Below the pieces are notes generated by a model. That model made no database searches. It was given only the letters and a program-made list of their open reading frames with translations, and was not told the DNA's origin. A program made the translations under genes and the position numbers. Shown here piece by piece: positions 527-28,841 of a stretch of DNA of 32,000 nucleotides. This DNA comes from Thermodesulfobacteriota bacterium. Lineage in GTDB: Bacteria; Desulfobacterota; UBA8473. The stretch spans positions 1 to 32,000 of the forward strand of contig JAXHVA010000003.1 of the NCBI GenBank assembly GCA_034189035.1, given 5' to 3'. Numbering within the stretch: position 1 is the first letter of the stretch; each line of letters begins with the position of its first letter.

Positions 527-905
527 ACTTCTTCTCTTTTAAAAAGTGTCGCTAAAGCAGCTCTCAAATTGTAATTACATGTAGAACTTATTCATACAGT
601 ACTCGCATTCCAAGTTGATCACCATTGACACTTGCAGATAGCCTTCATTTTTATGGCGCTGGAGTGATATAAAAAATGAAAAATGACTATTGAGTTACCT
701 TCGAATAAAAGAAATTTCGTGTTATTTAGTTAAACGGATATAATTATTAGAATTTATTGAACGATCTGTTCTCTTATTTATTAAAATCAAGACGTTACAC
801 GTAATGTTTTCGGAGCGAACTCAATAGCCGATAAATGAAATTCCCGAAAAGTATGTAAATGATGTTTCTCAAAATAGAAGTAGACAAAAAAAAAGCTTTT
901 TAGTA
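527..905 (+). repeat. Degenerate, expanded copy (H) of the nested-hairpin repeat family, subfamily 1
   Basis: tcttttaaaaagtgtcgctaaagcagctctcaaattgtaat (about 533-573) matches gcttttaaaaagagtcgcatcaacgacagtcaaattttaat of copy A. actcgcattccaagt (601-615) matches aaactcgcatccaagtgag of copy C. atcaccatt (618-626) matches the central loop. ctgttctcttatt...caagacgttacacgtaatgtttt (766-809) matches ctgttctttctt...cagacaacacacgcattaaaattt. The left inner arm is missing and the boundaries are approximate. Confidence 0.4.
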
Positions 906-1531
906 GGATAGTTAGTTGTTAATTATTCAGTATTTTTATTTTTTATAATGTCGCGAAGATATAAAGATTTCTATAATAGTAGACGATATGTCTTAAGAGA
1001 AAATACTCCGTATTCAAATATATAACCAGTATTTATAATCTGAATAAAGGAGTTTTTCTTATGAAAAGGTTGGACGTATTTATACTGCCTGCCGTATGTT
1101 TTTCGAGAAAAATAATCCTGTTTTATGCGAAAGTGTTGGAAAGATATTTTCCTGATAAGTATCTTCTCTTTTTTATGAATACACTGGATAGTAATATTCC
1201 TTCTAAAGCAGTTGGTTTTGTTATCGATACAGCAGATCAATACATTCATTATAAAGTACGTTCTTTTTTTATTATCTATAATAGATAAATGTGTCCCTGA
1301 TACTGTAGGTGATTCCAGAAAGGTTTCTTCAGTCATCGCTGGGTTTTGTAAGTATGTTCCTGATAGTGTAATCCCTGATAAGTCTATTGATGATTAGGTT
1401 AAATATTAAATTGAAATTTCATATTCCCACATTGCTATCCAATAAGCGAGTAAAGACACGCGGATAATTGAGATAATCATTTCTTAATTTGAATAACATT
1501 ACCTTTATTTAACCGCTGATTTTAATTTTAA

Positions 1532-1558
1532 TTGATTTTTTTAATGAAAGTGTATACT
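1532..1558 (+). promoter_or_regulatory. Candidate sigma70-type promoter for the lipid cluster
   Basis: TTGATT (1532-1537), a 15-nt spacer, then TATACT (1553-1558), about 55 nt upstream of the KAS III start codon. The short spacer and the AT-rich background make chance matches likely. Confidence 0.2.
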
Positions 1559-1613
1559 ATTCCATTTTTTCTTGTATTTTAACTAGGGAAAAAGGTCATT
1601 TGAGGGAAATTAG

Positions 1614-2663
1614 ATGCGATACAAAGATGTCTGCATTGAGTCTTTTGGATATGTAATACCGGAAGACATCATTACATCATTAAGCCTGGAAGAAAGACTG
1701 TCTCCAGTGTACGACAGGCTAAATCTTGCATACGGCCGCCTTGAAATGATGACCGGGATCCGTGAGCGGAGATTCTGGTTGAATGGAGACCCCCCGAGTC
1801 AAACCGGTGCAATGGCAGCAAAGAAGGCTATAGCTAACTCTGGTATAGAGAAGGATGACATCGAATGTATCCTTCATACTTCCTTGAGCCGTGACTTTCT
1901 GGAGCCAGCGACGGCCTTCTTGGTTCATGATTCCTTAGGCCTGCCTTCAACAGCGACCATATTTGACATATCAAATGCCTGTTTGGGCTTTGTAAACGGT
2001 ATGGTGTCCTTAGCAAATATGATTGAATTGGGTCAGGTAAAAGCGGGTATTGTGGTTGCAAGTGAAAGCAGTAGGCATATCACTGACACAACAATTGATG
2101 AAATCTTACAGGACCCAGAGATGACCAGGGCAAAACTCAAGCTTTCTTTTGCCTCTTTGACACTCGGTTCTGGGTCAGTGGCAGTGATTATGACCCATTC
2201 TTCATTGTCGAGCTCGAATCACAGGCTTTTAGGTGGAGTGATCCGTACCGCTTCCCAATATAACGGACTTTGCCGTATTGAAGATAATACATATTTTTAT
2301 AAGCCAAACAGCCGTCCAACTATGCATACTGACTATCAAGGTATTTTGGATAACGGGTTGCAATTAGCTGAAAAGACATGGAAGGCATTAAATAATGAGC
2401 TAGAATGGCAAAATTCTGATGTAGACAAAGTATTTTGTCACCAGGTGAGTGTTGTTCATCAAAGTCAATTGTTCGACAGATTGGATTTTTGCAGTGCGAA
2501 GGGGTTCTCCAGTGTAGAGTATTTAGGGAACATCGGTCCGGTTTCACTTCCTATTACTTTGGCCATATCAGAGGATAAGGGCCATCTCAATACTGAGGAT
2601 CGGGTTGCATTGTTGGGGATTGGCAGTGGGTTGTCTTCTATTATGCTTGGTGTAAAATGGTAA
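1614..2663 (+). CDS. 3-oxoacyl-ACP synthase III family (FabH-like KAS III)
   Basis: 349-aa ORF with GAGGG 8 nt upstream of the ATG. It carries the Cys-His-Asn triad motifs of KAS III: DISNACLGFVNG, VFCHQVS and YLGNIGPVSLP. The C-terminal GIGSGLS is typical of the family. Confidence 0.85.
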   Translation: MRYKDVCIESFGYVIPEDIITSLSLEERLSPVYDRLNLAYGRLEMMTGIRERRFWLNGDPPSQTGAMAAKKAIANSGIEKDDIECILHTSLSRDFLEPATAFLVHDSLGLPSTATIFDISNACLGFVNGMVSLANMIELGQVKAGIVVASESSRHITDTTIDEILQDPEMTRAKLKLSFASLTLGSGSVAVIMTHSSLSSSNHRLLGGVIRTASQYNGLCRIEDNTYFYKPNSRPTMHTDYQGILDNGLQLAEKTWKALNNELEWQNSDVDKVFCHQVSVVHQSQLFDRLDFCSAKGFSSVEYLGNIGPVSLPITLAISEDKGHLNTEDRVALLGIGSGLSSIMLGVKW

Positions 2664-2685
2664 TTTTACAAGAGGTGATTGCCAT

Positions 2686-3924
2686 ATGAATAACGAAGCA
2701 CGAATTGTAATAACTGGAGTCGGGTTAACTTCACCGAATGGGGATAATCTTACGGAATTCAGGCAGAATTTGCTTTCAGGAATATCCGGAGTAGGAAAGA
2801 TAAATACTCACTATATGGGGGAAGTCATTGCTGGCGTATGTGATTTTGACCCTCTTAAATATCAGAAGAAAAAGGCCCTGCGTCGTGGAACACGCGCAGG
2901 ATCTATAGCGATTTACTGTGCAAATGAGTCAATTGTCGATTCGAATATCAATCTTTCTTCTTTTGATAAATCCAGAATTGGGATATATCTTGGGATCACT
3001 GAGCACGGTAATGTGGAAACCGAAAATGAGATTTACAATTTAAAACAGTACGATTACAATGTGGATTTCTGGTCTCATCACCATAACCCAAGAACCGTGG
3101 CCAACAGCCCAGCAGGTGAGGTCACTCTAAATCTGACTATTACAGGACCGCATTACACTTTGGGCGCTGCATGTGCTGCCGGTAATATTGGGCTTATTAA
3201 CGGTTTGCAAATGCTGCGACTCAAAGAAGTGGATTTAGCCTTGGCTGGTGGGATTTCGGAGACTCCTCATACATTTGGTGTTTTTGCTGCATTTAAAAAT
3301 GAAGGTGCACTGGCAAGCCATACAGACCCGACTAAGGCATCCCGGCCTTTTGATAAGGATAGAAACGGTATCGTCGTTTCAGAGGGAGGTTGTATTTGTG
3401 CACTGGAAAGATTAGATGACGCCCTTAAAAGAGGTGCGAAAATCTATGGAGAAATAACCGGTTATGCGATCAACTCTGACGCATCTGACTTCATCCTTCC
3501 AAATCCTCTAAGGCAGGTTGAGTGCATGAATAGCGCCCTTAAAAGAGCTGGCATAGCGGCTAGTGATATCGATATTATCAATACACATGCTACTGCAACA
3601 CTAGAAGGTGACAAGGCGGAATGTAAGGCAATAAAAGAGGTCTTTGGGGCTCATTCAAATGTGAATATAAACAACACGAAGAGTTTCATTGGCCATACAA
3701 TGGGAGCTGCTGGCGCTTTAGAATTGGTAGGGAATTTACCATCATTTGAAGACCATATCATTCACCCGACGATCAATATAGACAATGTAGACTCTGAGTG
3801 TGTGTTTAAGAACCTTATAATCAACGAACCGAGAAAGATAGATAGAGTTGATTACATATTAAACAACTCATTTGGAATGCTGGGTATCAATTCTGTTGTT
3901 ATTGTAAAAAGATATAAAGGATAA
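2686..3924 (+). CDS. Beta-ketoacyl-ACP synthase I/II family (FabF-like)
   Basis: 412 aa. The N-terminus is RIVITGVGLTSPNG. The Cys-His-His triad is present in GAACAAGNIG, NTHATAT and GHTMGAAG. It lies 22 nt after the KAS III stop. Confidence 0.85.
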   Translation: MNNEARIVITGVGLTSPNGDNLTEFRQNLLSGISGVGKINTHYMGEVIAGVCDFDPLKYQKKKALRRGTRAGSIAIYCANESIVDSNINLSSFDKSRIGIYLGITEHGNVETENEIYNLKQYDYNVDFWSHHHNPRTVANSPAGEVTLNLTITGPHYTLGAACAAGNIGLINGLQMLRLKEVDLALAGGISETPHTFGVFAAFKNEGALASHTDPTKASRPFDKDRNGIVVSEGGCICALERLDDALKRGAKIYGEITGYAINSDASDFILPNPLRQVECMNSALKRAGIAASDIDIINTHATATLEGDKAECKAIKEVFGAHSNVNINNTKSFIGHTMGAAGALELVGNLPSFEDHIIHPTINIDNVDSECVFKNLIINEPRKIDRVDYILNNSFGMLGINSVVIVKRYKG

Positions 3925-3959
3925 CGTTTTTTAGCTTTTTTTAGGAAAGGAATATTTAT

Positions 3960-4211
3960 ATGACTGCAGTTGAAATTAGATCTACGATTTTAGAGGTCAT
4001 CCAGGAAATTCTTCCGGATGAAGATGTGAACAGCCTCAAGGCTGATGTCCGCATACGGGATCAGATTGAAATGGACTCAATGGATTTTTTAGATATGATT
4101 ATGGAGTTACGCAAACGTTACAGTATCATTGTGCCGGAAGATGACTATATGAAATTATTTACACTTGATAGTGCTGTGGCATATCTCGAACCGCTTATGA
4201 AAGATATTTGA
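3960..4211 (+). CDS. Acyl carrier protein (divergent, dedicated)
   Basis: 83 aa and acidic. The phosphopantetheine-site pattern is EMDSMDFLDMIMEL (DSM rather than the canonical DSL). AGGAAAGGA lies upstream of the ATG. Confidence 0.8.
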   Translation: MTAVEIRSTILEVIQEILPDEDVNSLKADVRIRDQIEMDSMDFLDMIMELRKRYSIIVPEDDYMKLFTLDSAVAYLEPLMKDI

Positions 4212-4578
4212 CCAATCTGCTTCGTGCACATTAAGGGATATTTTCCTCATTTTTCAAATAAACGAGTTTTTATCAAATAAGAGAAAATTGCCCTTTTCTT
4301 TTCATCCATCCAATTGGTTTTTAATACGATACTCCTTACATAATAGCTGATTAAAACTTAGAGGGCTGTTACCTAAATCACAGGTTCGTTTTTCGAAAAC
4401 GTATTTTATACACCCAAGACTCATAAAAAACATTTTAAAACTGACTCTTTGAGTATAAAGGGCTTGAAATTCCAAATATCAGTACGAATTCATCCAGAAA
4501 AGAAGATGCAAGGCAACGGCTAAGGTCTTTACAACTGTATCCTTTTTTGGAGGAATCACTTATCGCGAGAGTCTGGTT

Positions 4579-5964
4579 ATGGACTATGATGTTATCATTA
4601 TTGGTGGAGGAATGTCTGGTCTTGCAGCCGGTATCAGACTGGCCTATTATGACAAAAAGGTCTGTATTCTCGAAAAACATTATCGTATTGGAGGGCTGAA
4701 TTCATATTATGTCAAAGATGGACATAAATTTGATGTGGGTCTCCATGCAATAACAAATTACGTTCCTCGGGGTGTTAAATCAACTCCACTTCCAAAGTTA
4801 TTGCGTCAACTCAGATTAAAGCATGAAGATTTTGACCTTTGTGAACAGGGGATGTCGATGATCAAATTCCCTGATAGGACCCTCAGGTTTACTAATAACC
4901 TCGATTTTTTTGTTGAGGAAGTGGTTGATAATTTTCCAGGGCAGGCCGATAATTTCCAAAAGCTGATCAAAACCATCTTTGATTACAATGCATTATCTTT
5001 GGATACAAGGCCCATCTCTGCCTTTGAAGTTGTGGGATCGATTCTATCAGATCCTCTCTTAATTGATATGATCTTTTGCCCTCTCATGTTTTATGGTAAT
5101 GCAATGGAAGATGATATGGACTTCGGGCAGTTTGTTATCATGTTCCAGAGTATCTTCAACGAAGGTTTTGCAAGACCCTGGGCAGGTGTGAGGCAGATAC
5201 TCGATGTTCTCATCAATAAGTATAAGGAAAATGGGGGTGAGTTAAGGTTAAGTAGTGGTATAAAACGTATTACAGTTAAAGATGAAAAGGCCGAGTCGAT
5301 ATTACTCGAAAGCGATGACAAACTGACAGCGGACAATATCATATCATCTGCAGGTTATCTTGAAACCATGCGCCTTTTGTCAGATTACGATCCAAGAAAA
5401 TTCAAGTATGAATCAGGCCGGCTTTCATTTATAGAGTATATTATGATATTGGATAGAGAACCTGCTGAAATCGGTTATGAACAGACAATCACCTTTTTTA
5501 ATCATTCAGATCGGTTCAAATATGCAAAAGCAAAAGATCTGGTCGATGTTTCAAGTGGTGTTATATGCTGTCCTAATAATTTTCAATACAAAAAACCATT
5601 GCCTGAGCCTATAATCAGGGCAACAAATATTGCGAATTTCAATCTCTGGAATGAATTGGAACAAAAGGAATATGAAGCACAAAAGGTCAGATGGCTTGAT
5701 ACGACTCTGAAGGAAATCGTAAAGTTCATTCCCGATTTTCGAAGTTCAATACGTTATACGGACATATTTACACCGAAAACAATACATAGATTTACAGGTC
5801 ATATAAACGGCGCAGTATATGGAGGGCCGAATAAGATCAAGACAGGGAGGACACATTTAAAAAACCTGTTTATCTGTGGTACAGACCAAGGATTTTTGGG
5901 GATAGTCGGGGCAATGCTCAGTGGTATCTCCATGGCAAATCTTCATATACTTATGAGGGAGTAG
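4579..5964 (+). CDS. FAD-dependent oxidoreductase, phytoene desaturase (CrtI/CrtD, COG1233) family
   Basis: 461 aa. The N-terminal dinucleotide-binding fold is YDVIIIGGGMSGLAAGIRLA...ILEKHYRIGGL. The C-terminal GTDQGFLGIVGAMLSG segment is typical of this family. Confidence 0.8.
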   Translation: MDYDVIIIGGGMSGLAAGIRLAYYDKKVCILEKHYRIGGLNSYYVKDGHKFDVGLHAITNYVPRGVKSTPLPKLLRQLRLKHEDFDLCEQGMSMIKFPDRTLRFTNNLDFFVEEVVDNFPGQADNFQKLIKTIFDYNALSLDTRPISAFEVVGSILSDPLLIDMIFCPLMFYGNAMEDDMDFGQFVIMFQSIFNEGFARPWAGVRQILDVLINKYKENGGELRLSSGIKRITVKDEKAESILLESDDKLTADNIISSAGYLETMRLLSDYDPRKFKYESGRLSFIEYIMILDREPAEIGYEQTITFFNHSDRFKYAKAKDLVDVSSGVICCPNNFQYKKPLPEPIIRATNIANFNLWNELEQKEYEAQKVRWLDTTLKEIVKFIPDFRSSIRYTDIFTPKTIHRFTGHINGAVYGGPNKIKTGRTHLKNLFICGTDQGFLGIVGAMLSGISMANLHILMRE

Positions 5965-6033
5965 AATCCGATAACCATTCGAAGTGATTTTTATCTACAA
6001 AAAAGAGTTAAAAGATTTACCTAAGAAAAAACA

Positions 6034-7400
6034 GTGGCTAAGAAACTATTACTCATTAACCCGGTTCAGGAACCTAAGCATAATCTGGCTTGCGTCCCTA
6101 TCTTAAGGGTTCCACAAGTAGGTTTAGCGTATATAGCTGCATTAACCCCCTTTCATTGGGATATAAATATAATCGATGAGAGTGTTGAGCCTCTGACTTA
6201 TGAGGATGCCGACCTCGTTGGCATAACAGCATATACTTGCAATATTCAAAGAGCATATAAAATAGCTGAGCAGTACAGAAGAAAAGGCATTAAAACTGTG
6301 ATTGGCGGTGTGCATGCCTCTATATTGTATGAAGAAGCCATAAATTTTGTTGATTCTGTTGTAATCGGTGAGGCTGAATCTGTTTGGTCAGACCTGATCC
6401 ATGACTTCGAAAGTAATCAGTTGAAGAGGTATTACAAAGGTGAGCGTATTTCTTTAAATAACCTTGTTCAACCCAGAATGTATCTTTATAAAAGCAGAAA
6501 ATATCGAGTGAAAGATGTTGTACAAACAGCGAGAGGCTGTCCTAATGATTGTGAGTTTTGCTTAGTAACGACCCTTTATGGTCGTACCTATAGACAAAGA
6601 CCCGTAGATGAGTTACTCGATGAATTAGAAGCAATAAAACAAAAGAACGTCTTTTCCCCGGATGATAATATCTTAGGTCGCGGAAAAGAAGCAGAACAGA
6701 GGGCGATTCGATTGTTTAAAGGGATGATCGAGCGAGGATTAAAAAAACGATGGGGATCTCAAGTAGGCATTGATTTTGCGAAGAACGAGGACGTATTGAA
6801 GTATGCAAAAAAAGCCGGTTGTATGGCAGTATTCATTGGCTTTGAATCACTCAATGAAGAAGCACTTCAAAGTATGAATAAAACGAGAAACTTGGAGGTA
6901 GGTATAAGAAATTATAAAGAGATAATCCAGAGCATGACTATAACATTGGGGTAATCGGGGCGTTTGTTTTTGGCAGTGATGGTGACAAGAAAGATGTCTT
7001 TGAAAGGACAACTGAATTTGTCGAGGACGCAAAGATAGATGCAATACAACTGTCGATTCTCACCCCTCTTCCAGGGACGAGATTGTATAATAGATTAAAA
7101 CAGGAAGGGAGGCTATTGTGTACTGATTACCCTGATGATTGGCAGTATTATGATTTTCTGGAGGTTGTATTTGAGCCGAAGTACATGAGTCTTGATCAAT
7201 TGAAAGAGGGAGTTACCCAAGTTTATAAAGATACGACATCAAGGGCAAGATCACTGAAAATGGCTTTCAATTCGATGATCCAGACAAGGAGCTTTTATGG
7301 AGCTATTTGTGGGTATTTATGGAATCGTGGATACGGTTCAGTTTGGATGAGGAAATACGACTACATGAAGAGAATGAACCCTGATTTTAATTTAAAGTGA
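6034..7400 (+). pseudogene. B12-binding radical-SAM enzyme, interrupted by a -1 frame change (ORFs 6034-6954 and 6918-7400)
   Basis: The N-terminal part has the B12-binding-domain architecture (LLLINP...DLVGITAYT...GGVHAS) followed by the CxxxCxxC motif RGCPNDCEFC. Frame 1 stops at 6952-6954. Frame 3 is open from 6918 and reads HDYNIGVIGAFVFGSDGDKKDVFERTTEFVEDAKIDAIQLSILTPLPGTRLYNRL, the expected continuation of the TIM-barrel and C-terminal domain. Confidence 0.8.
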
Positions 7401-7411
7401 AGGGAAGAGTA

Positions 7412-8824
7412 ATGGTCGATAATGATTGCTTGAGGGATACAAGGTCACGATACGATGTTATTGTCATAGGTAGCGGGCTGGGGGGGCTTACCTGTGCAAA
7501 TATGCTGGCTAGAAATGGCTATTCGGTTTTACTCCTCGAACAGCACAATAAACTGGGTGGATTGGCTACCTGGTTCAGGAGAAAGGGAGGGCATATCTTT
7601 GATATATCATTGCACGGATTTCCAATCGGTATGGTTAAGACCTGTCGAAAATACTGGAGCAGAGAGATTGCCGACATGATTGTTCAACTTAAGGGAATCC
7701 GGTTTGATAACCCTCAGTTTTCATTAACCACAACCTTTGATAGAGAAGATTTTACCCGGATCCTAGAAGAGCGATTCAAGGTGCAACGCAAGGATATCAA
7801 TGATTTTTTTAATACAGCCAGGGAGATGAATTTCTATGATGATCAGAGTATGACAACCAGAGAGCTTTTTGAGAAGTTCTTTCCGGGGCGTGACGATGTG
7901 GTTCGTTTTTTGATGGAACCGATTACCTATGCCAATGGTTCAACCCTGGATGACCCAGCGATCACTTATGGGATCGTATTCTCCAATTTTATGAGCAAAG
8001 GCGTCTATACTGTTCGAGGCGGAACAGACCGGTTTATCGGAAAGATGGAAGCCGAGCTTGTAAAAAACGGTGTTGATATTGAGAAAAATTGCCTGGCACA
8101 GAGAATAACTGTCAAAGACCAAAGGGTTACAGGGGTAATCGCTAATGGGAGGATGATAGAGTGTAAGGCGGTTGTATCGAATGGCAATTTGAAATCAACC
8201 GTCCATAAATTTGTTGGACAGCAACATTTTTCGAAGGAATTCGCTTTAGAATCGAGGAATGTTCGTCTTAATAACAGTAGCTGCCAGGTATATCTGGGTA
8301 TAAAAGGAGGTGAGAGGATTGACTATGTAGGGGATTTGCTCTTTACTTCAACAGCAGAGAAATTCGATTCTGCAAAGCTCTTAAGCAAGGATATCACCAG
8401 CCGGACTTTTTCGATCTATTACCCGGAAACCCGACCAGGCTCTGATATGTATGCGATCGTTTCTTCCACCAATGCAAACTATGAAGACTGGGTAAGCCTC
8501 ACAGATGAACAGTATCAAAGCTCTAAAGAGGAACTTGTCGAGTCGACCATCGATGCTTTAGAGAAATATATCCCAGGGGTAAGAGCGAAGATTGACTGTG
8601 CACAAGCGGCTACCCCAAAGACATTTCAAAGGTACACGCTTCATGAATGTGGAGCTTCTTTTGGTACAAAATTTGAGGGATTAAAGATCAGTATGGGACT
8701 TCCGAAAGAGGTCCGGGGGCTTTTCCATACCGGGTCTGTTGGGATTATAATGTCCGGTTGGCTGGGGGCTGCAAACTACGGGGTCATTGTCTCGAACCAT
8801 GTTGATGAATACCTGAGATCCTGA
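7412..8824 (+). CDS. Second FAD-dependent oxidoreductase of the phytoene desaturase (COG1233) family
   Basis: [39 protein letters not shown] forms the Rossmann fold, and the length and C-terminal pattern fit the family. The ORF track starts at GTG 7397, overlapping the upstream stop. ATG 7412 is preferred because GAAGGGA lies 6-7 nt upstream of it. Confidence 0.8.
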
Positions 8825-8845
8825 TTTTTTTACAGGAGGTTGCAA

Positions 8846-9586
8846 ATGTACGATTTTAATGGGCAGACTGCGATTATTACAGGTGGTACAAGAGGCATAG
8901 GCAGAAGTATTGCACAGGGCTTCTTAAAAGCAGGTGCGCGCGTTATCGTTATTTACGCATCAAATGAGACTGCTGTGGCAGGCTTTAAGGAAGATAACGT
9001 TGAATTTGCTGATAAGATCGATGTACAAAGGTGTAATGTGGTCAACTATGAGGCAGTTGAGAGGCTTTTCGAATATATTGGTAAGGAATATGAAGGCTTC
9101 GATATACTCATAAACAATGCAGGTATCAGGAAAGATTCTATCCTTGCCATGATGAAAGAGTCTGACTGGCATGATGTACTCAATGTCAATCTCAGCGGGG
9201 TATTTTATATGTGCAAGTTTGCAGTAATGAGCCTGATGCGAAGACGATACGGGCGGATTATCAATATCACCTCTCCTTCAGGGAAGTACGGTTTTGAAGG
9301 TCAGGCGAATTATGGGGCATCAAAGGCAGGTATTGTTGCCCTTACAAAGACGCTTTCAAAAGAAGTTGCAAAGAGGGGGATTACGGTAAATTGCGTATCA
9401 CCGGGGTTTATTGCTACGGAATTGATTGCGGATATTCCTGAAGAATTGCGCAATTCGTATAAGGCTCAGGTTCCATTAAAGAGATTCGGGAAGCCTGAAG
9501 AGGTTGCTGCCTGTGTTCTTTTCCTCGCTTCTAAAGAGGCGTCATACGTTAACGGTACTACCCTCGAGGTCACAGGAGGATTATAA
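8846..9586 (+). CDS. fabG: 3-oxoacyl-ACP reductase (SDR family)
   Basis: The SDR motifs are TGGTRGIGRSIA, NNAG and S...YGASKAG (catalytic Ser-Tyr-Lys). AGGAGG lies 7 nt upstream of ATG 8846. The track's TTG 8840 start is less likely. Confidence 0.85.
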   Translation: MYDFNGQTAIITGGTRGIGRSIAQGFLKAGARVIVIYASNETAVAGFKEDNVEFADKIDVQRCNVVNYEAVERLFEYIGKEYEGFDILINNAGIRKDSILAMMKESDWHDVLNVNLSGVFYMCKFAVMSLMRRRYGRIINITSPSGKYGFEGQANYGASKAGIVALTKTLSKEVAKRGITVNCVSPGFIATELIADIPEELRNSYKAQVPLKRFGKPEEVAACVLFLASKEASYVNGTTLEVTGGL

Positions 9587-9587
9587 G

Positions 9588-10007: not shown

Positions 10008-10043
10008 AGAATGGGGATTGGTTAGTCAAAGATTATCTAAAAC

Positions 10044-10313
10044 AAAACAATTTAGCTTTTAAAAAGAGTCGCATCAACGACAGTCAAATTTTAATCCGAG
10101 TAAAACTCGTATCCAAGTGAGTGTAAAAGAAGAACAGTATATCGCCATTCAATTCAGTAGCGCTATTATTATACTATTTACTGATATAAAATGTGAGGTT
10201 ATCCCCTGTTCTTTCTTAACGCTCACTAAGAAACTCAGACAGCACACGCATTAAAATTTGACTGTCGTTGATCCTTGATAACAGTTTTCTATTTCATGGC
10301 TCAAAAATGATAC
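10044..10313 (+). repeat. Nested-hairpin repeat, subfamily 1, copy A (full length)
   Basis: The outer stem is a perfect 23 bp: atcaacgacagtcaaattttaat (10073-10095) pairs with attaaaatttgactgtcgttgat (10250-10272). The inner stem is agtgagtgtaaaagaagaacag (10116-10137) against ctgttctttcttaacgctcact (10206-10227). The element fills the fabZ-fabI gap. Confidence 0.85.
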
Positions 10314-10323
10314 AGGGAATCAT

Positions 10324-11124: not shown

Positions 11125-11157
11125 TTGGTGAATCAGATAGAGACAATGGAGAAATGA

Positions 11158-14754: not shown

Positions 14755-15026
14755 GTAAGAGTGTAGCTTTACGAAAAAAAAGGATGACAGCAAGCAATAA
14801 GTGGTGGTCAAATTTTAATGCGTGTAGTTGTTTGAGTATCTTGGTGAGCGTTAAGAAAGGACAGGGGATAACCTTAGCTTTAATATCTGAAATAGTTAAT
14901 AATGGAATTATTGAATTGAATAGTCATATACTGTTCTTTCTTTACACTCATTTGGATACGAGTTTTACACGGATCAAAATTTGATCACCACTCATTGCAG
15001 CTCTTTTCAAAAAGCTAAACTTTTTC
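14755..15026 (-). repeat. Nested-hairpin repeat, subfamily 1, copy B (full length, inverted orientation)
   Basis: The reverse complement aligns end to end with copies A and C. The ends are gtaagagtgtagc (14755-14767) and gctaaactttttc (15014-15026). The outer stem is agtggtggtcaaattttaat paired with atcaaaatttgatcaccact. The inner stem is ggtgagcgttaagaaaggacag paired with ctgttctttctttacactcatt. Confidence 0.85.
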
Positions 15027-17089: not shown

Positions 17090-17123
17090 ATTGTCAACCA
17101 TTAATTTGATAATGGTTGACAAT
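17090..17123. promoter_or_regulatory. BirA operator (bioO)
   Basis: A perfect 14-bp inverted repeat: attgtcaaccatta (17090-17103), spacer atttga, then taatggttgacaat (17110-17123). The half-sites TTGTCAACC / GGTTGACAA resemble the known TGTnAACC-N-GGTTnACA BirA box. It lies between birA and bioB. Confidence 0.8.
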
Positions 17124-17144
17124 TATTGCTAAAAGTCCTATATT
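17116..17144 (+). promoter_or_regulatory. bio operon promoter overlapping the operator
   Basis: -35 TTGACA (17116-17121, inside the right operator half-site), a 17-nt spacer, then -10 TATATT (17139-17144). It lies 55 nt upstream of the bioB ATG. Confidence 0.55.
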
Positions 17145-17199
17145 AAAAAGCTATTGATCTGAATATGTCGTTTTCCAAGGTCTTTATACAAAGGAGCAT

Positions 17200-18186: not shown

Positions 18187-18224
18187 ATTGATAGAACCCA
18201 TTTTTGAATAAGCGGAGGCAATCA

Positions 18225-19592: not shown

Positions 19593-19678
19593 GGATCATC
19601 TCCAATTTGACCCCTTGAATCCTTTTCACCAATTAAATGGGATAAGAAACGTAAATAAGACTACGTTATTGAGCTAAC

Positions 19679-19880
19679 ACAGCAATGGTGATCACATTTT
19701 AGCGTGTGTAACTGTTTGAGCGGTGTAGTGAGCGTTAAGAAAGAACAGAAGTGTTGCTTTATAGTTGAGTGTATGAACGGGTATTCGTAACTGTTCAATT
19801 ATAAAGATCAATACTGTTCTTTCTTTACGCTCACTCACTAGCGATTTTTGCACGGGTTAGAATGTGATCACCATTGCTGT
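19679..19880 (-). repeat. Nested-hairpin repeat, subfamily 2, copy D (full length, inverted orientation)
   Basis: The outer stem is a perfect 20 bp: acagcaatggtgatcacatt (19679-19698) pairs with aatgtgatcaccattgctgt (19861-19880). The inner stem is agtgagcgttaagaaagaacag paired with ctgttctttctttacgctcact. Similarity to copies E and F continues about 15-35 nt into both flanks, roughly 19664-19914. Confidence 0.85.
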
Positions 19881-19920
19881 AAACGACTTTTTTATAAAGG
19901 AAGTTAAATAACCGATTGAA

Positions 19921-21848
<1,928 letters not shown>

Positions 21849-21873
21849 ATACATTGAGATAGGCATTGAAATT

Positions 21874-22081
21874 GATACAGCAATGGTAGTCATATTATAA
21901 CCCGTGCAAAACTCGCGCTTTAGTGAGCGTAAAGAAAGAACAGTATTGATCTTTATAAATTAGACAACGAATGTAAATGATCTTACGAATATCCATCCAG
22001 CAACACTTCTGTTCTTTCTTAACGCTCACTACACTACTCAAACAGTTGTACGCATTATAATATGACCACCATTGCTGTATC
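21874..22081 (+). repeat. Nested-hairpin repeat, subfamily 2, copy E (full length)
   Basis: The outer stem is gatacagcaatggtagtcatattataa (21874-21900) paired with ttataatatgaccaccattgctgtatc (22055-22081), with 26 of 27 positions paired. The inner stem is agtgagcgtaaagaaagaacag paired with ctgttctttcttaacgctcact. It is the reverse complement of copy D along its whole length. Confidence 0.85.
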
Positions 22082-22179
22082 TACTCAATATCTACCAAAC
22101 TCAATATATGTTCGTCAAGAGGTCTCTTAAAGAGATTGGTAAAACTGTAGTTGGAGTTATTAATAACACTAATGTTTTT

Positions 22180-22446
22180 GTAACAGTTTAGCTTTTTGAA
22201 AAGAGACGCTTCAACGACGGTTAAATTTTAATCCGTGTAAACTCGCATCCAAGTGAGCGTAAAGAAAGAACAGTATATCACCATTCAATTCAGTAGATCC
22301 ATTAATAACTATTTCAGACATTAAATGTGAGCTTATTCCCTGTTCTTTCTTAACTCACTTTGACGCTCAGACAACACACGCATTAAAATTTGACCGTCGC
22401 TTCTTGCTTGATGAAAGCTTTCTATTTCATAGCGCTAAACTGTTAC
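22180..22446 (+). repeat. Nested-hairpin repeat, subfamily 1, copy C (full length, with intact TIRs and TSD)
   Basis: The 13-bp perfect terminal inverted repeats are gtaacagtttagc (22180-22192) and gctaaactgttac (22434-22446). They are flanked by identical 8-mers atgttttt (22172-22179 and 22447-22454). Internal modules are collinear with copies A and B. Confidence 0.9.
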
Positions 22447-22483
22447 ATGTTTTTTTTAAGCGATAGGCAACAGATCGATTTTT

Positions 22484-23413
22484 ATGTGTAATGCAATCGT
22501 GGATTCCCTTTATCAGATACTCGATGACTGTACCCTATGCCCAAGGCAATGCCATGTGAACAGGAGAGCCGGCGAATTGGGGTATTGCGGCGCAGGGATT
22601 CATTTAAAAGTGGCAAAGGCAATTCCCCATTTTGGGGAAGAACCGCCTATTTCAGGTATCAAGGGCTCAGGTACGATTTTTTTCAGCCATTGCAACCTGA
22701 GATGCAGATTCTGTCAGAACTACCAGATCAGTCAACTCGGTATGGGCCAAGAGATGACCTCTGATGAGCTCTGTGAAAAGATGCTTTTGCTTCAGGATTC
22801 TGGCTGTCATAATATCAACCTCGTAACACCGACACCGTTTTTACCCCAGATTGTAAAGAGCATTTTGCAGGCAAAGGAAGGTGGACTGAAGATACCGATC
22901 GTTTACAATACGAACGGTTATGAGAGGACTCGAATTCTGAGGGTATTGGAAGGGATAGTAGATATATATCTCCCTGATGCGAAATACGGGAGCAACGAAG
23001 CTGCTATACGCCACTCAAATGCAGCGGATTATTTACAATTCAATGAGTCTGCCTTGAAAGAGATGAAAAGGCAGGTTGGAGATCTTATAATCAATGAAGC
23101 GGGAATCGCAAAAAGGGGGATCATTGTGAGGCATCTCATCCTTCCGGATGACCTGGCGGAATCAGTTGCTGTTATTGAGAGGCTTTCGTATATGCTTGGC
23201 ACAGATACCTATATTAGCCTTATGGGGCAGTACTTCCCCATGTATAGGGCATTTGAGAGTAAGCAATTAAGCAGAAGAATCACATGTGATGAATTCGATA
23301 AATATTGCCTTGTAATTGAATCTAAAGGATTTGAAAATGGGTGGATTCAATACCCTGACGAGATTGACGGCGGATTTCTGCCTGATTTTGAGGTGAAAGA
23401 CCAGTGGAACTGA
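22484..23413 (+). CDS. Radical-SAM protein, PflX-type (pyruvate formate-lyase activase-like)
   Basis: 309 aa. An N-terminal CPRQCHVNRRAGELGYCG cluster is followed by the radical-SAM motif CNLRCRFCQNYQIS. Confidence 0.8.
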   Translation: MCNAIVDSLYQILDDCTLCPRQCHVNRRAGELGYCGAGIHLKVAKAIPHFGEEPPISGIKGSGTIFFSHCNLRCRFCQNYQISQLGMGQEMTSDELCEKMLLLQDSGCHNINLVTPTPFLPQIVKSILQAKEGGLKIPIVYNTNGYERTRILRVLEGIVDIYLPDAKYGSNEAAIRHSNAADYLQFNESALKEMKRQVGDLIINEAGIAKRGIIVRHLILPDDLAESVAVIERLSYMLGTDTYISLMGQYFPMYRAFESKQLSRRITCDEFDKYCLVIESKGFENGWIQYPDEIDGGFLPDFEVKDQWN

Positions 23414-23418
23414 ATTGA

Positions 23419-23442
23419 AAAAATGAATGAATGTTCATTTTT
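23419..23442 (+). terminator. Weak candidate terminator after the PflX-type gene
   Basis: aaaaatgaa (23419-23427), loop tgaatg, then ttcattttt (23434-23442). This is a 9-bp, almost all-AT stem ending in a T run, so predicted stability is low. Confidence 0.25.
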
Positions 23443-23583
23443 CCCTTGACGGTTCCCTTAGGAATATGCTAATTAAAATAAGGAGCTTTGAAGAACCATC
23501 CTCATTTCTTTCTATAGGTATTTTTGGGCCTATCTTAGCTCGCGTAATGAAAATTTACGAACAATATAAAAGAGAGACTTGCA

Positions 23584-24150
23584 ATGCAATATCAGTTAGA
23601 TGCTAATGTCCGTAGTTTTGGAGAAACTATATCGGAGCTGAGTGGTGAAGATATATATTCATGTTATCAGTGTGGTAAATGTACTGCCGGATGTCCCGTT
23701 GCACTAGAGATGAGCCATACGCCGAATCAAATCATTCGATTAATACAATTGGGTCTAAAAGAAGAGGTGCTTACTTCTTCGACGATTTGGTTATGTGCAT
23801 CGTGTGAAACCTGTACGACCCGTTGCCCAAAAGAGGTGGACATCGCCAAGATTATGGATACAATGAGGATCCTGTCTGTCAAAGAGGGATACGCCTGCAA
23901 AGAGCCCGCAGTACTTACATTAAATGAGACTTTCTTGGATTCGGTGAGGAATAACGGAAGGCTACAGGAGACACGGTTGGCCATGGCATATAATTTAAAG
24001 ACTAAACAGTTTTTCAAGGATATGGGGCTTGGGCAGAAGTTATTTCTGAAGGGGAAGATGTCTTTTTTAGGAAATAAGATTCAAGGAAAAGAGGCAATAC
24101 AAGCCATCTTTGAGAGATCGAAGGGTTTTTTGGATAAAGGGGAAAGATAA
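23584..24150 (+). CDS. hdrC: Heterodisulfide reductase subunit C-like
   Basis: 188 aa with two ferredoxin-type motifs, CYQCGKCTAGCP and CASCETCTTRCP, spaced as in HdrC. Confidence 0.85.
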   Translation: MQYQLDANVRSFGETISELSGEDIYSCYQCGKCTAGCPVALEMSHTPNQIIRLIQLGLKEEVLTSSTIWLCASCETCTTRCPKEVDIAKIMDTMRILSVKEGYACKEPAVLTLNETFLDSVRNNGRLQETRLAMAYNLKTKQFFKDMGLGQKLFLKGKMSFLGNKIQGKEAIQAIFERSKGFLDKGER

Positions 24151-25025
24151 TGGCATACGGATATTATCCGGGCTGCTCTTCGCATGGTACAGCCAGGGAA
24201 TACGATATTTCAACGAAGAAGGTATGTAAAAAGTTAGGCTTAGAATTGAAAGAGGTCAAAGACTGGAACTGTTGTGGCGCTTCGCCTGCTCATGCTACAA
24301 GTGAAGAGCTTTCTTTGGCGTTGCCGTTTCGGAATCTAGCCCTGGCAGAGAAACAGGGATTAACTAGTATAATGTCTACGTGTTCAGCCTGTTACAATCG
24401 GTTGAAAGTTGCGGACGAGACATTGAAGAACACCCCGCAGATATCGGAAAGAGTCAGCGAAATCGTTGGAGAATCCTATAACAGTAACCTCAAGGTCATT
24501 CACTTTTTGGACCTTATATCGAAAGAATTGGGGATTGAAAGCCTGAAGGAGAAGGTACTAAAGCCTCTAACCGATATAAAGATCGTTTCATACTATGGGT
24601 GTCTCTTAACCAGACCCCCTGAATTCGTATCTGTGGATTCGGATCCGGAAAATCCTACAGTAATGGAGGAGATTATTTATGCACTGGGGGCAGAGGCTCC
24701 CGATTGGTCTCATAAGACGGAGTGTTGTGGGGCAAGCCTTGCCTTAAGCAGGACCGATATTGTCCTGAGGTTGAGTGGCGAAATCTTAAAATCTGCGAGG
24801 TTTGCAGATGCGGATTGCATTGCTGTGGCGTGTCCTTTGTGCTATGCAAATCTCGATATGAGACAGGCGCAGATATCTTCAATACATGGTGTAGACTATT
24901 CCTTGCCGATCTTATTTATATCCGAGCTGATCGGTATCGCTTTAGGAATCGGGTATAGAGGCCTTGGCATGAACAAGCATATGGTCGGTGCCAAGACGCT
25001 GTTAACTGAAAAAGGCTTAATATAA
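24150..25025 (+). CDS. hdrB: Heterodisulfide reductase subunit B-like (two CCG domains)
   Basis: 291 aa. YYPGCS...WNCCGA and YYGCLLTRP...TECCGA are the duplicated CCG-domain signatures. The start overlaps the hdrC stop (TAATG). Confidence 0.85.
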   Translation: MAYGYYPGCSSHGTAREYDISTKKVCKKLGLELKEVKDWNCCGASPAHATSEELSLALPFRNLALAEKQGLTSIMSTCSACYNRLKVADETLKNTPQISERVSEIVGESYNSNLKVIHFLDLISKELGIESLKEKVLKPLTDIKIVSYYGCLLTRPPEFVSVDSDPENPTVMEEIIYALGAEAPDWSHKTECCGASLALSRTDIVLRLSGEILKSARFADADCIAVACPLCYANLDMRQAQISSIHGVDYSLPILFISELIGIALGIGYRGLGMNKHMVGAKTLLTEKGLI

Positions 25026-25095
25026 ATCAATTGAGTTCTCGGATTTCCAGTATAATAAATTCGGTGATTGAGTTCTCTTTGAAAAAAAAACGGTC

Positions 25096-25185
25096 ACAGC
25101 AAAGGCAATCACATTATAACCAGTGCAAAACTCACTGCACTGCTCAGATAAGTTGCACGCGTTATAATGTGACTGCCTTTACTGT
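25096..25185 (+). repeat. Nested-hairpin repeat, subfamily 2, copy F (internally deleted mini-element)
   Basis: acagcaaaggcaatcacattataac (25096-25120) pairs with gttataatgtgactgcctttactgt (25161-25185), 23 of 25 positions. The interior, ccagtgcaaaactcac|tgcactgctcagataagttgcacgc, joins the left and right internal-loop modules of copy E directly. The inner stem and central loop are absent. Confidence 0.75.
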
Positions 25186-25283
25186 GTTAGTGCAATAATC
25201 ATTTTATTTTGCAAATGTTCGTCAAATAGAGTCCAAATCGTAATCCGGTGAAACAGTAAAAAATTACTTAAAGGAGTACTATA

Positions 25284-27254
25284 GTGTCAAGAGTCGGAGT
25301 ATTTATCTGTCACTGCGGTGTGAATATCTCGAGTACCGTAGATGTAGAGAAGCTTTGTGAAGAGCTTGCCCAAGAGGATGGAGTCGCCATCGCAACTGAG
25401 TACAAGTATATGTGTTCGGATCCAGGGCAGAGGATAATAAAAGAAGCCATTGAAGAACACAACCTCGACAGTATCGTTGTTGCCTCTTGTTCTCCGAGAC
25501 TCCATGAGAGAACATTCCAGTTGTGCATCGAAGGGGCAGGGCTCAACCGATACAAACTCGAGATGGCCAATATTCGAGAGCAGTGTTCATGGGTACATAA
25601 AGACAAACAGTATGCCACCTTAAAGGCCAAGGATTTGATCAAGATGGCGGTCGCCAAGGTCAGAAAGAATAAGCCTTTTGACCAGCTTTCCATCCCAGTC
25701 TTGAAAAAGGCGCTGGTAATCGGTGGAGGAATTGCCGGAATGCAGGCTGCCATAGACATTGCCAAGGCAGGCCATAAGGTTACTCTAGTAGAGAGGACAC
25801 CTACAATAGGCGGGAGGATGGCGCAGCTTGACAAGACCTTTCCCACACTCGATTGCTCTGCCTGAATACTCACTCCTCGGATGGTGGAATCATCCCAAAA
25901 TGAAAACATAGAGATATTCACCTACTCAGAGATTGAGGAAGTCGGCGGCTATATAGGCAACTTCGATGTAAAGATTCGGAAAAAGGCCCGATTCGTTGAT
26001 CTGGAGAAGTGTACAGGATGCGGCACGTGTTACCAGAAATGCCCTGTTAAGGTTCCAAGCGAATTTGATATGGAGATGGGCATGAGAAAGGCCATTTATG
26101 TCCCCTTTCCCCAAGCTGTACCGAACGTGCCTGTGATCGACAAAGAGCATTGCAGGATGTTTACAAAGGGCAAATGCCAGATATGTCAGAAACTCTGCCA
26201 GGCAGAAGCTGTGGATTACGAGCAAGAAGACGAGATCATTGAAGATAAGTTTGGGGCCATTGTAGTGGCAACAGGGTATGACCTCTTTGATGCCAGTGCC
26301 TATGGTGAGTATGGCGGCGGCAGGTTTAAGGATGTTATAACCGGTCTCCAACTCGAGAGATTGATAAGCCCTGCAGGCCCCACAGGGGGGCACATAAAAC
26401 GTCCGTCTGACGGAAAAGAGCCGAAGAATGTGGTCTTTATCCAGTGTGTTGGGTCACGGGATGTTGAGAAAGGCGTCCCATATTGTTCGAATGTCTGTTG
26501 TATGTACACTGCGAAACAGGCTGTATTGCTCAAAGAGCATCTGCCTGAGGTTCAAACGAATATATTCTACATGGACATCCGGTCTGCGGGTAAAAACTAT
26601 GAACAGTTTGTACAGCGGACAATGGAAAAGTATGGTGCTTTATATATGAGAGGGAGGGTTTCAAAGATTTACCAGCGGGGAGACAAATTGATAGTGAAAG
26701 GGGCTGATACCCTTGCAGGGAGCCAGGTTGAGGTGGAAGCCGATATGGTTGTACTCGCTACAGGGATAACTCCACGGCACGATTCAAAAGACCTGGCAGG
26801 GATATTGAGCATCCCCTACGACCAGTTTGGCTTCTTTACAGAACTCCATCCAAAACTTGCACCAATAGAAACCGTCACATCCGGAATATTCCTGGCAGGC
26901 GCCTGCCAGGCACCCAAGGATATCCCTGACACTGTCTCTTCTGCCAGCGGTGCTGCAGCCAAGGTTGCAGCCCTTTTCAGCAGCGATCAGATGTCAATGG
27001 AGCCGCTGGTTTCAACTATAGATACCGCTGTTTGTTCAATGTGCAAGGCGTGTATGGAAGTCTGTCCGTATAGTGCGATCCAGGAAGAAGAGATTACATT
27101 ACGGGACGGGACAAAGAAGAAACAACTCAAAGTTTTAGAGAGTGTGTGCCATGGTTGCGGGGCCTGCGTCTCTACGTGCAGGTCATCCTGTGTCATGCTG
27201 AGAGGGATGACCGATGAACAGATATTTGACGAATTAATGGCTGTAGCACAGTAG
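25284..27254 (+). CDS. hdrA: Heterodisulfide reductase subunit A-like flavoprotein, selenocysteine-containing (TGA 25863-25865 read as Sec)
   Basis: ORFs 25284-25865 and 25881-27254 are in the same frame. Read through, the junction gives LDKTFPTLDCSA-U-ILTPRMVESS, matching the conserved HdrA motif FPTxDCSxCILxPKM with Sec in place of Cys. The N-terminal VFICHCG cluster, FAD fold (VIGGGIAGMQAA) and two ferredoxin motifs (CTGCGTCYQKCP, CHGCGACVSTC) are present. The GTG start has AAAGGAG upstream. Confidence 0.85.
25879..25895 (+). promoter_or_regulatory. Putative bacterial SECIS hairpin for the hdrA UGA
   Basis: ggatg (25879-25883) pairs with catcc (25891-25895) around the loop gtggaat. The stem starts 13 nt after the UGA and the G-rich apical loop starts 18 nt after it, within the range usual for bacterial SECIS elements. 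Confidence 0.55.
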
Positions 27255-27274
27255 GTTACAAAGAGGATATTATT

Positions 27275-27712
27275 ATGGAAGAGACGAAATGGGAGCCAAA
27301 GGTAGTCGGATTTTTATGTCACTGGTGTAGCTATGCTGGCGCGGATCTGAGCGGTTCCGCCCGTTTGGAGTATCCGCATAATATAAGGATTATACGGATC
27401 CCCTGCTCAGGCAGGGTAGATCCTATGTTTATTCTTCGGGCTTTGCAAAATGGGATTGACGGAGTAATCGTTTCGGGCTGCCATCCGGGTGATTGCCATT
27501 ATCAATCCGGCAATTTTCATGCAAGGAGGAAATTTGCCGTTATACGAAGGCTCATCGACTATGTTGGAATTGAACCGGAGAGGGTTCAGTTTAGCTGGGT
27601 AGCCGCCTCAGAGGGCCCCAAGATGGCTCAGGTAATCGATGAATTTATCGAAGGAGTGCGCAAGGTAGGACCTAACAGACTTTTTAAGGATGAAAATAGA
27701 GATGGAAAGTAA
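27275..27712 (+). CDS. mvhD: MvhD/FlxD-type [2Fe-2S] electron-transfer protein
   Basis: 145 aa. VVGFLCHWCSYAGADLSG...IRIPCSGRVDP...GIDGVIVSGCHPGDCHY is the MvhD (methyl-viologen-reducing hydrogenase delta subunit) signature. Confidence 0.85.
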   Translation: MEETKWEPKVVGFLCHWCSYAGADLSGSARLEYPHNIRIIRIPCSGRVDPMFILRALQNGIDGVIVSGCHPGDCHYQSGNFHARRKFAVIRRLIDYVGIEPERVQFSWVAASEGPKMAQVIDEFIEGVRKVGPNRLFKDENRDGK

Positions 27713-28652
27713 GCTGAAACAAGAGGCGGGGAACCTTTTAAGAGAAGGCAAGGTAGACTATATTGTGGGTTATGGTAAAGGAAGCGTCAAGTTTCGAACC
27801 TCCCCCCTAATAACAAACACAGAAGAGAAACTGGAAGATCTCGTAATCAATCCTTTTATTGCGAATAATCTCAGTAGATACCCGATAGAGCTAAAGGCAA
27901 GGGTAGGTATCGTAGTAAAGGGCTGTGATTCTCGCTCCCTTGTCAGTCTGATACAGGACAAGAAGATCCTTCGGGAAGACGTCGTGATACTTGGCGTTCC
28001 CTGTGAAGGAGTCGTTGACATCAAAAAGATAGAGAAGCACACAGGCAGGGATATCGATCAGATAGAAGAGATAAAAAAAGAAGGAGAGAACCTGACTGTC
28101 CAAGTGAATGGCTCAAACCAGACGATTTCATTCAAGGATATGCTATTTAATAAGTGCCTCGGATGTGAGTATCCTACGCCCTTGGAATACGACGTACTTT
28201 TAGGAACAGAGGTATTCCCGAACCCGGATATGGAAAAGAGCCTGGTGCAGATTAAAGCGCTTGAGGAAATGGATGCCTCTAAGAGATGGGCCTATTGGAG
28301 AGAAGAGTTCAGCAAGTGTATTCGGTGTTATGGCTGCAAAAACGTTTGTCCTGCTTGTTTTTGCGAAAGATGTTTTATCGATGTGAATATCCCCCAATGG
28401 GTCAGTACTTATGCAACCTGGCAGGATAATCTTGTCTTTCAATTGATACGAACCCTCCATGTAGCGGGCAGATGCTCAGACTGCGGAGAGTGTGAGCGGT
28501 CGTGTCCTGTGGGCATCCCCTTGAGGAGTTTACAAAGGAAAATGCAAGAAGAGGTCAAGGCGCTTTTTGGTCATGAGGTTGGGGTAGACAAGGATGCGCT
28601 TCCGGTCTTTACGCATTATGAGGATACTGATCCTGAAGAGTTTATTAAATAG
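27690..28652 (+). CDS. Iron-sulfur protein, FlxC-like (two 4Fe-4S motifs)
   Basis: 320 aa. The cluster motifs are CIRCYGCKNVCPACFC and CSDCGECERSCPVGIP. The N-terminal part (VVKGCDSRSLVSL...LGVPCEGVVD) resembles partners of Hdr/Mvh-type complexes. The start is ATG 27690 or 27702 and overlaps the end of mvhD. Confidence 0.7.
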   Translation: MKIEMESKLKQEAGNLLREGKVDYIVGYGKGSVKFRTSPLITNTEEKLEDLVINPFIANNLSRYPIELKARVGIVVKGCDSRSLVSLIQDKKILREDVVILGVPCEGVVDIKKIEKHTGRDIDQIEEIKKEGENLTVQVNGSNQTISFKDMLFNKCLGCEYPTPLEYDVLLGTEVFPNPDMEKSLVQIKALEEMDASKRWAYWREEFSKCIRCYGCKNVCPACFCERCFIDVNIPQWVSTYATWQDNLVFQLIRTLHVAGRCSDCGECERSCPVGIPLRSLQRKMQEEVKALFGHEVGVDKDALPVFTHYEDTDPEEFIK

Positions 28653-28654
28653 AG

Positions 28655-28841
28655 GGAACGGTTTAGCTTTATGTAAATAAAAAGATATCAGCAAGCAAGA
28701 AGCGGCAATCGAATTTAATCCGTGTAAAACCCGTATCTTTCCCCTATCTCTTTATTAACGCTCACTAAGAAGCTCAGAAACTACACGCATTACAATTTGA
28801 CTTCCGATTCTTGCAATTCTTTTTAAAAGCTAAAATTTTAC
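28655..28841 (+). repeat. Nested-hairpin repeat, subfamily 1, copy G (internally deleted)
   Basis: The ends are ggaacggtttagc (28655-28667) and gctaaaattttac (28829-28841). Left modules run up to ttaatccgtgtaaaacccgtatc and are then joined directly to tttcccctatctctttattaacgctcactaagaagctcagaaactacacgcattacaatttgac. The flanking 8-mers are aaatagag (28647-28654) and aaataaag (28842-28849), identical at 7 of 8 positions. Confidence 0.8.

Follow-up and report, generated by a model that had tools for sequence, protein, structure and literature searches.

Intergenic hairpin repeats of a Thermodesulfobacteriota bacterium as probable miniature transposable elements, one type with IS66-type ends and another on different ends

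A 32,000-nucleotide stretch of a Thermodesulfobacteriota genome (assembly GCA_034189035.1, contig JAXHVA010000003.1, positions 1 to 32,000; hereafter the window) carries a family of nested-hairpin repeats located between genes and designated A to H. [quoted passage not shown] A first-pass annotation of the window had recognized a single nested-hairpin family. The order of its modules, the 22-bp inner stem, the central loop of ~68 nt, and the two subfamilies of outer stems, corresponding to type 1 (A, B, C, and G) and type 2 (D, E, and F), were all recovered in our alignment. The same annotation had left the family outside of the catalogued kinds of repeats. This view has to be abandoned since the type-1 termini are identical to those of an insertion sequence (IS) of the IS66 family, and the supposedly unclassifiable repeat is better described as a family of MITEs, which are elements of an established type.

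Ends, target duplications, and empty sites of type 1

Window copies were recovered by repeat finding, multiple alignment, and a profile hidden Markov model built from the five full window copies. The inner-stem 21-mer occurred nine times in the window with up to three mismatches, versus 0.00 occurrences expected. Species-representative genomes were scanned for exact matches to the inner-stem motif, which returned more than 107 stretches, a lower bound, so that the repeats are not a local anomaly of the window. The profile search detected at least 146 elements in the window and 107 loci (L001 to L107) taken together, i.e. in 730 kb, of which 698 kb were contributed by the loci, a small and biased part of fragmented metagenome-assembled genomes (MAGs). 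Elements of the family ranged from 59 to 312 bp and contained no conserved open reading frame (ORF). ORFs of 100 or more amino acids overlapped them by 3.6% on average, versus a background of ~79%.

Type 1 was represented by 60 full copies of 268 to 277 bp, which displayed sharp similarity boundaries and the ends GTAAC...GWTAC. The terminal inverted repeats were GTAACATTTTAGCYTTTTGAAAA and TTTTCAAAAGGCTAAAWTGWTAC, the ~24-nt repeat being GTAACATTTTAGCYYTTTGAAAA; the end sequence against which the ends of a source IS would be matched was GTAACATTTTAGC. The copies were flanked by an 8-bp target-site duplication (TSD), which was perfect in 30 of the 60 copies and identical at seven or more positions in 45 of them. 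Shifted registers gave no match (0/60 each), other lengths gave at most one perfect match, and the targets were AT-rich. A 6-bp duplication combined with a variable terminal base was also considered and rejected, since moving the boundary inward by 1 nt gives an exact 8-bp TSD. An independent sample, ascertained through the termini, contained 54 short elements that could be scored; the 8-bp TSD was perfect in 26 of them and matched at seven or more positions in 38.

Filled and empty sites were read directly from the sequence rather than from a global alignment. At locus L022, a 276-bp element is flanked on each side by TTCCTTTC, which occurs only once, with no element, at the orthologous site of another species (locus L061). 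Positions 15.8-23.4 kb of the window have their ortholog in locus L006 (CSMAG_2901), with 85-90% identity. Copy C is absent from the orthologous L006 site, and L006 harbors insertions in the birA-bioB and bioB-bioA gaps, neither of which contains an insertion in the window. Copies D and E are old since both are also present in L006.

Deletion derivatives have moved as well. A class of ~185 bp comprised ten copies, including G, and its consensus retains intact type-1 termini; the TSD was read for G only (7/8). A 79-bp mini element with type-1 ends, devoid of both inner-stem arms, was flanked by perfect TSDs (GAATCT.., CTATAA..), and a 59-bp derivative with type-1 ends was also present. Terminal repeats, a TSD of fixed length, empty sites, many copies, and deletion derivatives that have moved indicate that type 1 is a MITE. 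In addition, the type-1 elements at L009:2330-2600 and L011:1888-2200 contained secondary insertions of short GC-rich palindromes (e.g. ...CCCCTCACCCTGCCCTCTCCCCCCAGGGGGAGAGGGTTTGGGTGAGGGG...), pointing to further small mobile palindromes in the genomes concerned.

An insertion sequence with the type-1 ends

Several candidates for a parent IS were examined in the first loci. Orphan termini, including the orphan end at L090:7538, half-elements located next to long ORFs, and multi-copy ORFs were all rejected, as none led to a transposase.

In PMC11946415, which cites TnCentral, IS66-family elements are described as having inverted repeats of 20-30 bp starting with GTAAGCG and direct repeats of 8 bp. 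Because GTAA termini and an 8-bp duplication pointed to this family, metagenomes were scanned with the type-1 terminus, which yielded 63 inverted terminus pairs in 120 loci. Of the 63 pairs, 56 delimited short elements that fell into many size classes between 65 and 419 bp, and one spanned 1.8 kb. The other six delimited units of 2338-2373 bp (L118:5235-7572, L138:311-2664, L144:1236-3600, L161:115-2487, L172:74-2423, and L221:163-2528). The terminal repeats of these IS-sized units are ~27-30 nt long, and their first ~24 nt match the MITE termini at both ends. The L118 unit, with a GC content of 0.47, is flanked on both sides by the perfect 8-bp TSD AAAGGATT.

The IS-sized units encode an IS66-family transposase (NF033517, 256 bits for a cutoff of 180; DDE_Tnp_IS66, PF03050; zf-IS66, PF13005) and a 295-residue DruA-like protein (PF14236, E = 2e-37), the latter in an ORF that lies upstream of the transposase gene and overlaps it. 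Identity among the transposases is 62-68%. Judged from its sequence, type 1 is an IS66-type MITE. In the searchable literature, which does not cover ISfinder, we found no description of IS66-derived MITEs, of MITEs in Desulfobacterales, or of the present architecture. PF14236 (DUF4338) is a family named after the Druantia anti-phage system; no paper linking DruA/DUF4338 to IS66 was found in the searchable literature.

The hairpin core and its possible origins

The type-2 elements contain the same hairpin core of ~190 bp between the ends GGTTATTGA...TCAATAACC, and three young copies are flanked by a TSD of ~14 bp (13/14, 12/14, and 12/14). A further set, type 4 (309-312 bp), combines this core with the termini GGCATCCTTCATA... 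and a perfect TSD of 8 bp; an element of unrelated interior was likewise bounded by type-4 termini. Type-2 elements were found nested inside a "type-3" element with type-1 ends, as in L006. Other MITE families sharing the IS66-type ends had mostly unrelated, often GC-rich interiors and also folded as long hairpins, indicating that the hairpin shape is generic. The AGTGAGCG... core is specific to this low-GC marine lineage.

A second abundant MITE family, designated Y, was observed in the same loci. It has the termini GGCATCCTTCATA...GTTTACAC, perfect 8-bp TSDs (e.g. GCTATTTA), and an interior unrelated to the hairpin core (examples at L096:4401-4712 and L043:1516-1816; 69 terminus hits across L001 to L107).

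Both the core and the chassis that carries it are asymmetric, and the core was flipped relative to the chassis in 7 of 60 type-1 copies, as determined by gapped scoring and checked by eye. Flips were also found in type 2 (L001 versus L053) and between window copy E and its ortholog, indicating that the inverted arms recombine. In the consensus fold, 20 of 49 pairs were changed on both sides, nearly all of them in the outer and intermediate stems and with few G:U intermediates, and the inner stem was invariant. Recombination between arms or a symmetric binding site explains this pattern as well as an RNA helix would.

The first-pass annotation had placed the interest of the repeats in their transcription as hairpins. 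Our data give no support to an RNA or host function. The copies were oriented at random with respect to co-directional neighboring genes (34 same, 30 opposite), there was no excess of G:U on the mRNA-sense strand (129 G:U versus 109 A:C, p = 0.22), promoter-like and terminator-like sites occurred at background level and were not conserved in the elements, and old copies were deleted or flipped. On the "+" strand of the core, the stems of the 60 type-1 copies contained 260 A:C versus 166 G:T mismatches, and the consensus fold showed the same trend; this asymmetry probably reflects inherited mismatches counted many times rather than evidence for RNA. Both strands of copy A folded far better than shuffled sequences (z = -6.4 and -5.7), as a long hairpin. 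In agreement with the first-pass annotation, no Rfam family was matched, with 0 hits at the gathering score over the whole window. The best sub-threshold hit was MIR821 (40.7 bits for a threshold of 249), the sub-threshold hits being plant miRNA hairpins. Co-transcription of copies located within operons is plausible, and any effect on the operon mRNAs would be putative.

In the mechanism that we propose, a DDE transposase of the IS66-family group, supplied in trans, would recognize both ends of the type-1 elements (A, B, C, G, and the H remnant) and insert them by an 8-bp staggered cut, generating the 8-bp target duplication, with a preference for AT-rich targets. The transposase of the IS-sized units may have moved the very copies present in this genome. 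Type 2 would presumably be moved by a different enzyme, because its ends differ and its duplication is longer (~14 bp). The nested hairpin would be the extended palindrome of the element itself, in which recombination between inverted arms would occasionally flip the core and probably keep the arms complementary. Accumulation between genes would result from the removal of genic insertions by selection and from the use of AT-rich targets.

Several observations weigh against this mechanism. The six IS-sized units come from metagenome contigs and not from MITE-bearing genomes, and five of them lack matching TSDs and are possibly metagenome assembly chimeras. A tblastn search of the window and of the 107 loci (698 kb) with three of the transposases and three of the DruA-like proteins gave no hit; a source of transposase in the MITE-bearing lineage is therefore putative. 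Five copies of the window (A, B, D, E, and F), which are old, have no recognizable TSD, and the length of the type-2 TSD is based on three copies only. The 22-bp inner stem is conserved beyond the apparent need of transposition (~46% of the arms are exact, with ~96% conservation per site), this conservation being partly inflated since that motif had been used to gather the initial sample. Finally, the presence of the same core on three different terminus sets is not explained by simple descent from one IS.

The latter two points would be accounted for if the core were a functional module, such as a sequence bound by a host protein or by a transposon-accessory protein, or an element of RNA processing or stability in operon transcripts, kept by selection and carried by different ends. 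Such a module would fit the association of one core with type 1 (IS66-type ends, 8-bp TSD), type 2 (GGTTATTGA, ~14-bp TSD), and type 4 (GGCATCCTTCATA, 8-bp TSD), and the inner stem, near-invariant across at least 13 species, is invariant across types while the outer stems co-vary. Also in its favor, unrelated interiors are found in most of the other MITEs that share the IS66-type ends, and several copies are located inside the fab, bio, and hdr/flx gene clusters. However, orientation to transcription is random, the core itself flips in its chassis, and the mRNA strand has no G:U excess, one-sided G:U states being rare in comparison to double changes. Old orthologous copies have lost the loop and one arm or are rearranged, and both G (7/8) and the 79-bp mini element nonetheless carry TSDs in spite of lacking an intact inner stem. 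No conserved promoter or terminator signal was found in the elements, and part of the inner-stem conservation stems from sampling. We therefore regard a selected module as unlikely. It is likewise doubtful that the ~190-bp double-stem core is a portable functional cassette, captured by three unrelated chassis and either binding a protein or acting on transcripts; if true, this would be a portable cassette spread by MITEs in seep sulfate reducers.

The assignment of type 1 to an IS66-group transposase was also weighed against other families that generate 8-bp duplications (IS256, ISL3, IS1595, IS6, or hAT-like), the match to IS66 ends being in that case coincidental or a relic. The lack of any transposase in the MITE-bearing genomes, as sampled by the window and the 107 loci, and the presence of an intact TSD in only one of the six IS-sized units would be consistent with such an origin. 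We consider it highly improbable because ~24 consecutive terminal nucleotides of the MITE recur at both ends of six independent units of the IS66 family, a perfect 8-bp TSD flanks the L118 IS, and GTAA termini with 8-bp direct repeats are the hallmark of IS66 stated in PMC11946415. That the repeats are host palindromes similar to REP/BIME, ERIC, or Correia elements, or a family of structured RNA genes, rather than transposon derivatives is hardly credible. Long imperfect palindromes with the folding scores given above, a location between genes and inside operons, and weak sub-threshold Rfam hits to hairpin miRNA precursors are features of this kind, but exact 8-bp TSDs and empty orthologous sites are incompatible with REP/RAYT and Correia elements, no Rfam family reached the gathering score, orientation is random, and the elements are 270 bp long versus 20-40 bp for REP.

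Window copies, distribution, and related systems

Seven of the eight copies listed in the first-pass annotation were found at or near the positions assigned to them. The extent of the eighth, H, had been overstated, since only ~525-671 (+ strand) corresponds to a decayed, internally deleted type-1 remnant (nhmmer E = 1e-4), in which positions 534-574 align with consensus positions 13-54 (71%) and positions 592-634 with consensus positions 197-240 (77%, E = 3e-5). The segment 685-829, previously included in H, is a separate small element devoid of the core; its type-2-like inverted ends (GACTATTGAG...CTCAATAGCC) were read from the sequence, and no strand was assigned to it. Copies A (10044-10313, + strand, profile E = 5e-74) and B (14755-15026, - strand, E = 4e-74) are old type-1 MITEs. 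The left terminus of A is eroded, with AAAAC in place of the expected GTAAC, and its TSD is not recognizable; the termini of B are partly eroded, without a clean TSD, and a type-1 terminus is found at 15005-15026. Copy C (22180-22446, + strand, E = 2e-75) is a young type-1 MITE with intact termini (GTAACAGTTTAGC...GCTAAACTGTTAC), flanked at 22172-22179 and 22447-22454 by ATGTTTTT. Copy G (28655-28841, + strand) belongs to the ~185-bp subfamily of type-1 deletion derivatives and has neither the left inner-stem arm nor the loop; its TSDs, AAATAGAG at 28647-28654 and AAATAAAG at 28842-28849, are identical at seven of eight positions.

Among type-2 copies, D has its core at 19679-19880 and extends over 19665-19913 with its termini (- strand, E = 3e-59; ends GTTATTGAG.../...AAATAACC). 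Its L006 ortholog is present with a deletion of 87 bp removing the loop and one inner-stem arm. Copy E (21862-22092, + strand, E = 2e-58) is rearranged, with a short-type terminus at both sides, and the core is oriented the other way round in the element found at the orthologous site of L006. Between E and C lies the remnant arm of a type-3 element (TTGACGAACATATATTGAGTT...; 22093-22175, - strand), with an exact arm match at 22098-22118. Copy F (25063-25200, + strand) has undergone a deep internal deletion that left no more than the outer stem, after which comes a fragment of a type-3-like arm.

All copies are strictly intergenic and several are located between co-directional genes, as originally described. 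None of the window copies breaks a coding sequence, the TTG-initiated ORF overlapping G most likely starting at ATG 28862. The flanking genes assigned by the first-pass annotation agree with Pfam. Copy A separates a FabA-like gene from an enoyl-ACP reductase gene, and copy B an HNH gene from a peptidase S58 gene. The other gaps lie between the class-III and class-I/II aminotransferase genes of the bio cluster, between genes for AAA_26 (BioD-like) and radical SAM proteins, between CCG-domain and HdrA-like genes, and between genes for two Fe-S proteins. The fab, bio, and hdr/flx core clusters thus tolerate palindromes of 270 bp between genes.

Three additional features of these clusters were observed. 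The best sigma-70-like site of the scanned region (TTGACA-17-TATATT, 11/12) is located at 17116-17144, in the gap between bioB and a BirA-like gene encoding a helix-turn-helix domain, and probably represents the promoter/operator region of the bio genes; the L006 locus carries a MITE in the same gap. At the 3' end of bioB in L006 (L006:5333-5341; CSMAG_2901), the two final codons are replaced by sequence derived from an element, which also provides the stop codon (...LMLN-SV* versus ...LMLN-WR*). The HdrA-like gene (25284-27254) forms one 657-codon frame with an in-frame TGA at 25863-25865 (motif FPTLDCSA-TGA-ILTP), which is probably a selenocysteine codon rather than the sign of two genes.

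The high density of copies pointed out by the first-pass annotation, eight in 32 kb, holds for the window; bystander copies in the 698 kb of related loci suggest an average of ~1 per 22 kb. Among the matches listed, the hosts were 13 species-level Desulfobacterales-type genome bins and one archaeal bin. The sources were mostly cold-seep and other marine-sediment samples, and many of the host MAGs belong to a global cold-seep catalogue (PMC10491686). The archaeal contig (CABGHG010000014.1, from a "Candidatus Methanolliviera sp. GoM_oil" bin) carries at L087:1535-1844 a type-4 element nearly identical to those of the Desulfobacterales bin CSMAG_2994; it was probably misbinned, with transfer as the alternative. 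An alphaproteobacterial bin (L098) was rejected as a host since it contained the 21-mer only, without an element, indicating a chance match. A collection of plasmids gave no blastn match to the family, and viral contigs gave no match either.

Contig or locus ends were occupied by 30 of the 146 elements, in keeping with the tendency of repeats to break assemblies. In one instance, a Logan contig (L108, SRR24907505), the only other assembly found to encode an identical enoyl-ACP reductase, begins inside the right arm of copy A (window position ~10202), where the assembly broke at the MITE. The elements thereby explain breakup of cold-seep Desulfobacterales genome bins, and they provide insertion-polymorphism markers to tell strains and species of uncultured sulfate reducers apart. 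More generally, environmental MITEs, numerous and varied, are linked here to a group of the IS66 family endowed with a DruA-like gene, and one hairpin core is documented on several transposon chassis. The basic picture of MITEs is unchanged.

The nearest known systems are the IS66-family ISs and, more broadly, bacterial MITEs derived from ISs. Type 1 resembles IS66-family ISs by termini that start with GTAA, a terminal repeat of ~24-30 nt, and a target duplication of 8 bp, and the DDE transposase encoded by the IS that shares these ends is of the IS66 family and includes a zf-IS66 domain. It differs by the upstream ORF of this IS, which is DruA-like (PF14236), whereas TnpA and TnpB occupy the upstream position in the classical IS66 layout. 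In addition, the canonical inverted repeat starts with GTAAGCG according to PMC11946415, whereas the termini reported here start with GTAAC or GTATC and are devoid of the subsequent GCG.

Like the present family, the Correia/NEMIS elements of Neisseria are abundant, short, non-coding, and mostly intergenic, with inverted ends and size variants produced by internal deletions; they are often co-transcribed with their neighbors, which is only putative here. Correia elements are ~100-155 bp long, with a TA duplication and terminal inverted repeats of ~26 bp. By contrast, type-1 elements are 268-277 bp long and have an 8-bp TSD of variable sequence, their sequence and host are different, and their termini are presumably unrelated to those of Correia elements. 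Processing by RNase III and promoter activity are documented for Correia elements and would be putative here. The ERIC/IRU and REP/BIME sequences of Enterobacteria are also imperfect intergenic palindromes that can lie in operons and fold in the mRNA, but they are unrelated in size and sequence, and the present family displays insertion footprints and empty sites. REP sequences are linked to RAYT transposases; we know of no TSD or matching IS for them. RUP, BOX, MITEAba12, MITECca01, and other bacterial MITEs are similar in their general biology, since they are non-autonomous, have terminal repeats and a TSD, occur in many copies with an intergenic bias, and insert into other mobile elements (PMC9769881); they differ in sequence, host, parent IS family, and TSD length. 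The reuse of one conserved core on three terminus sets has not been described for these families as far as we could check. The repeats of the window form a new family among elements of an established class, and the history of their modules is modestly unusual.

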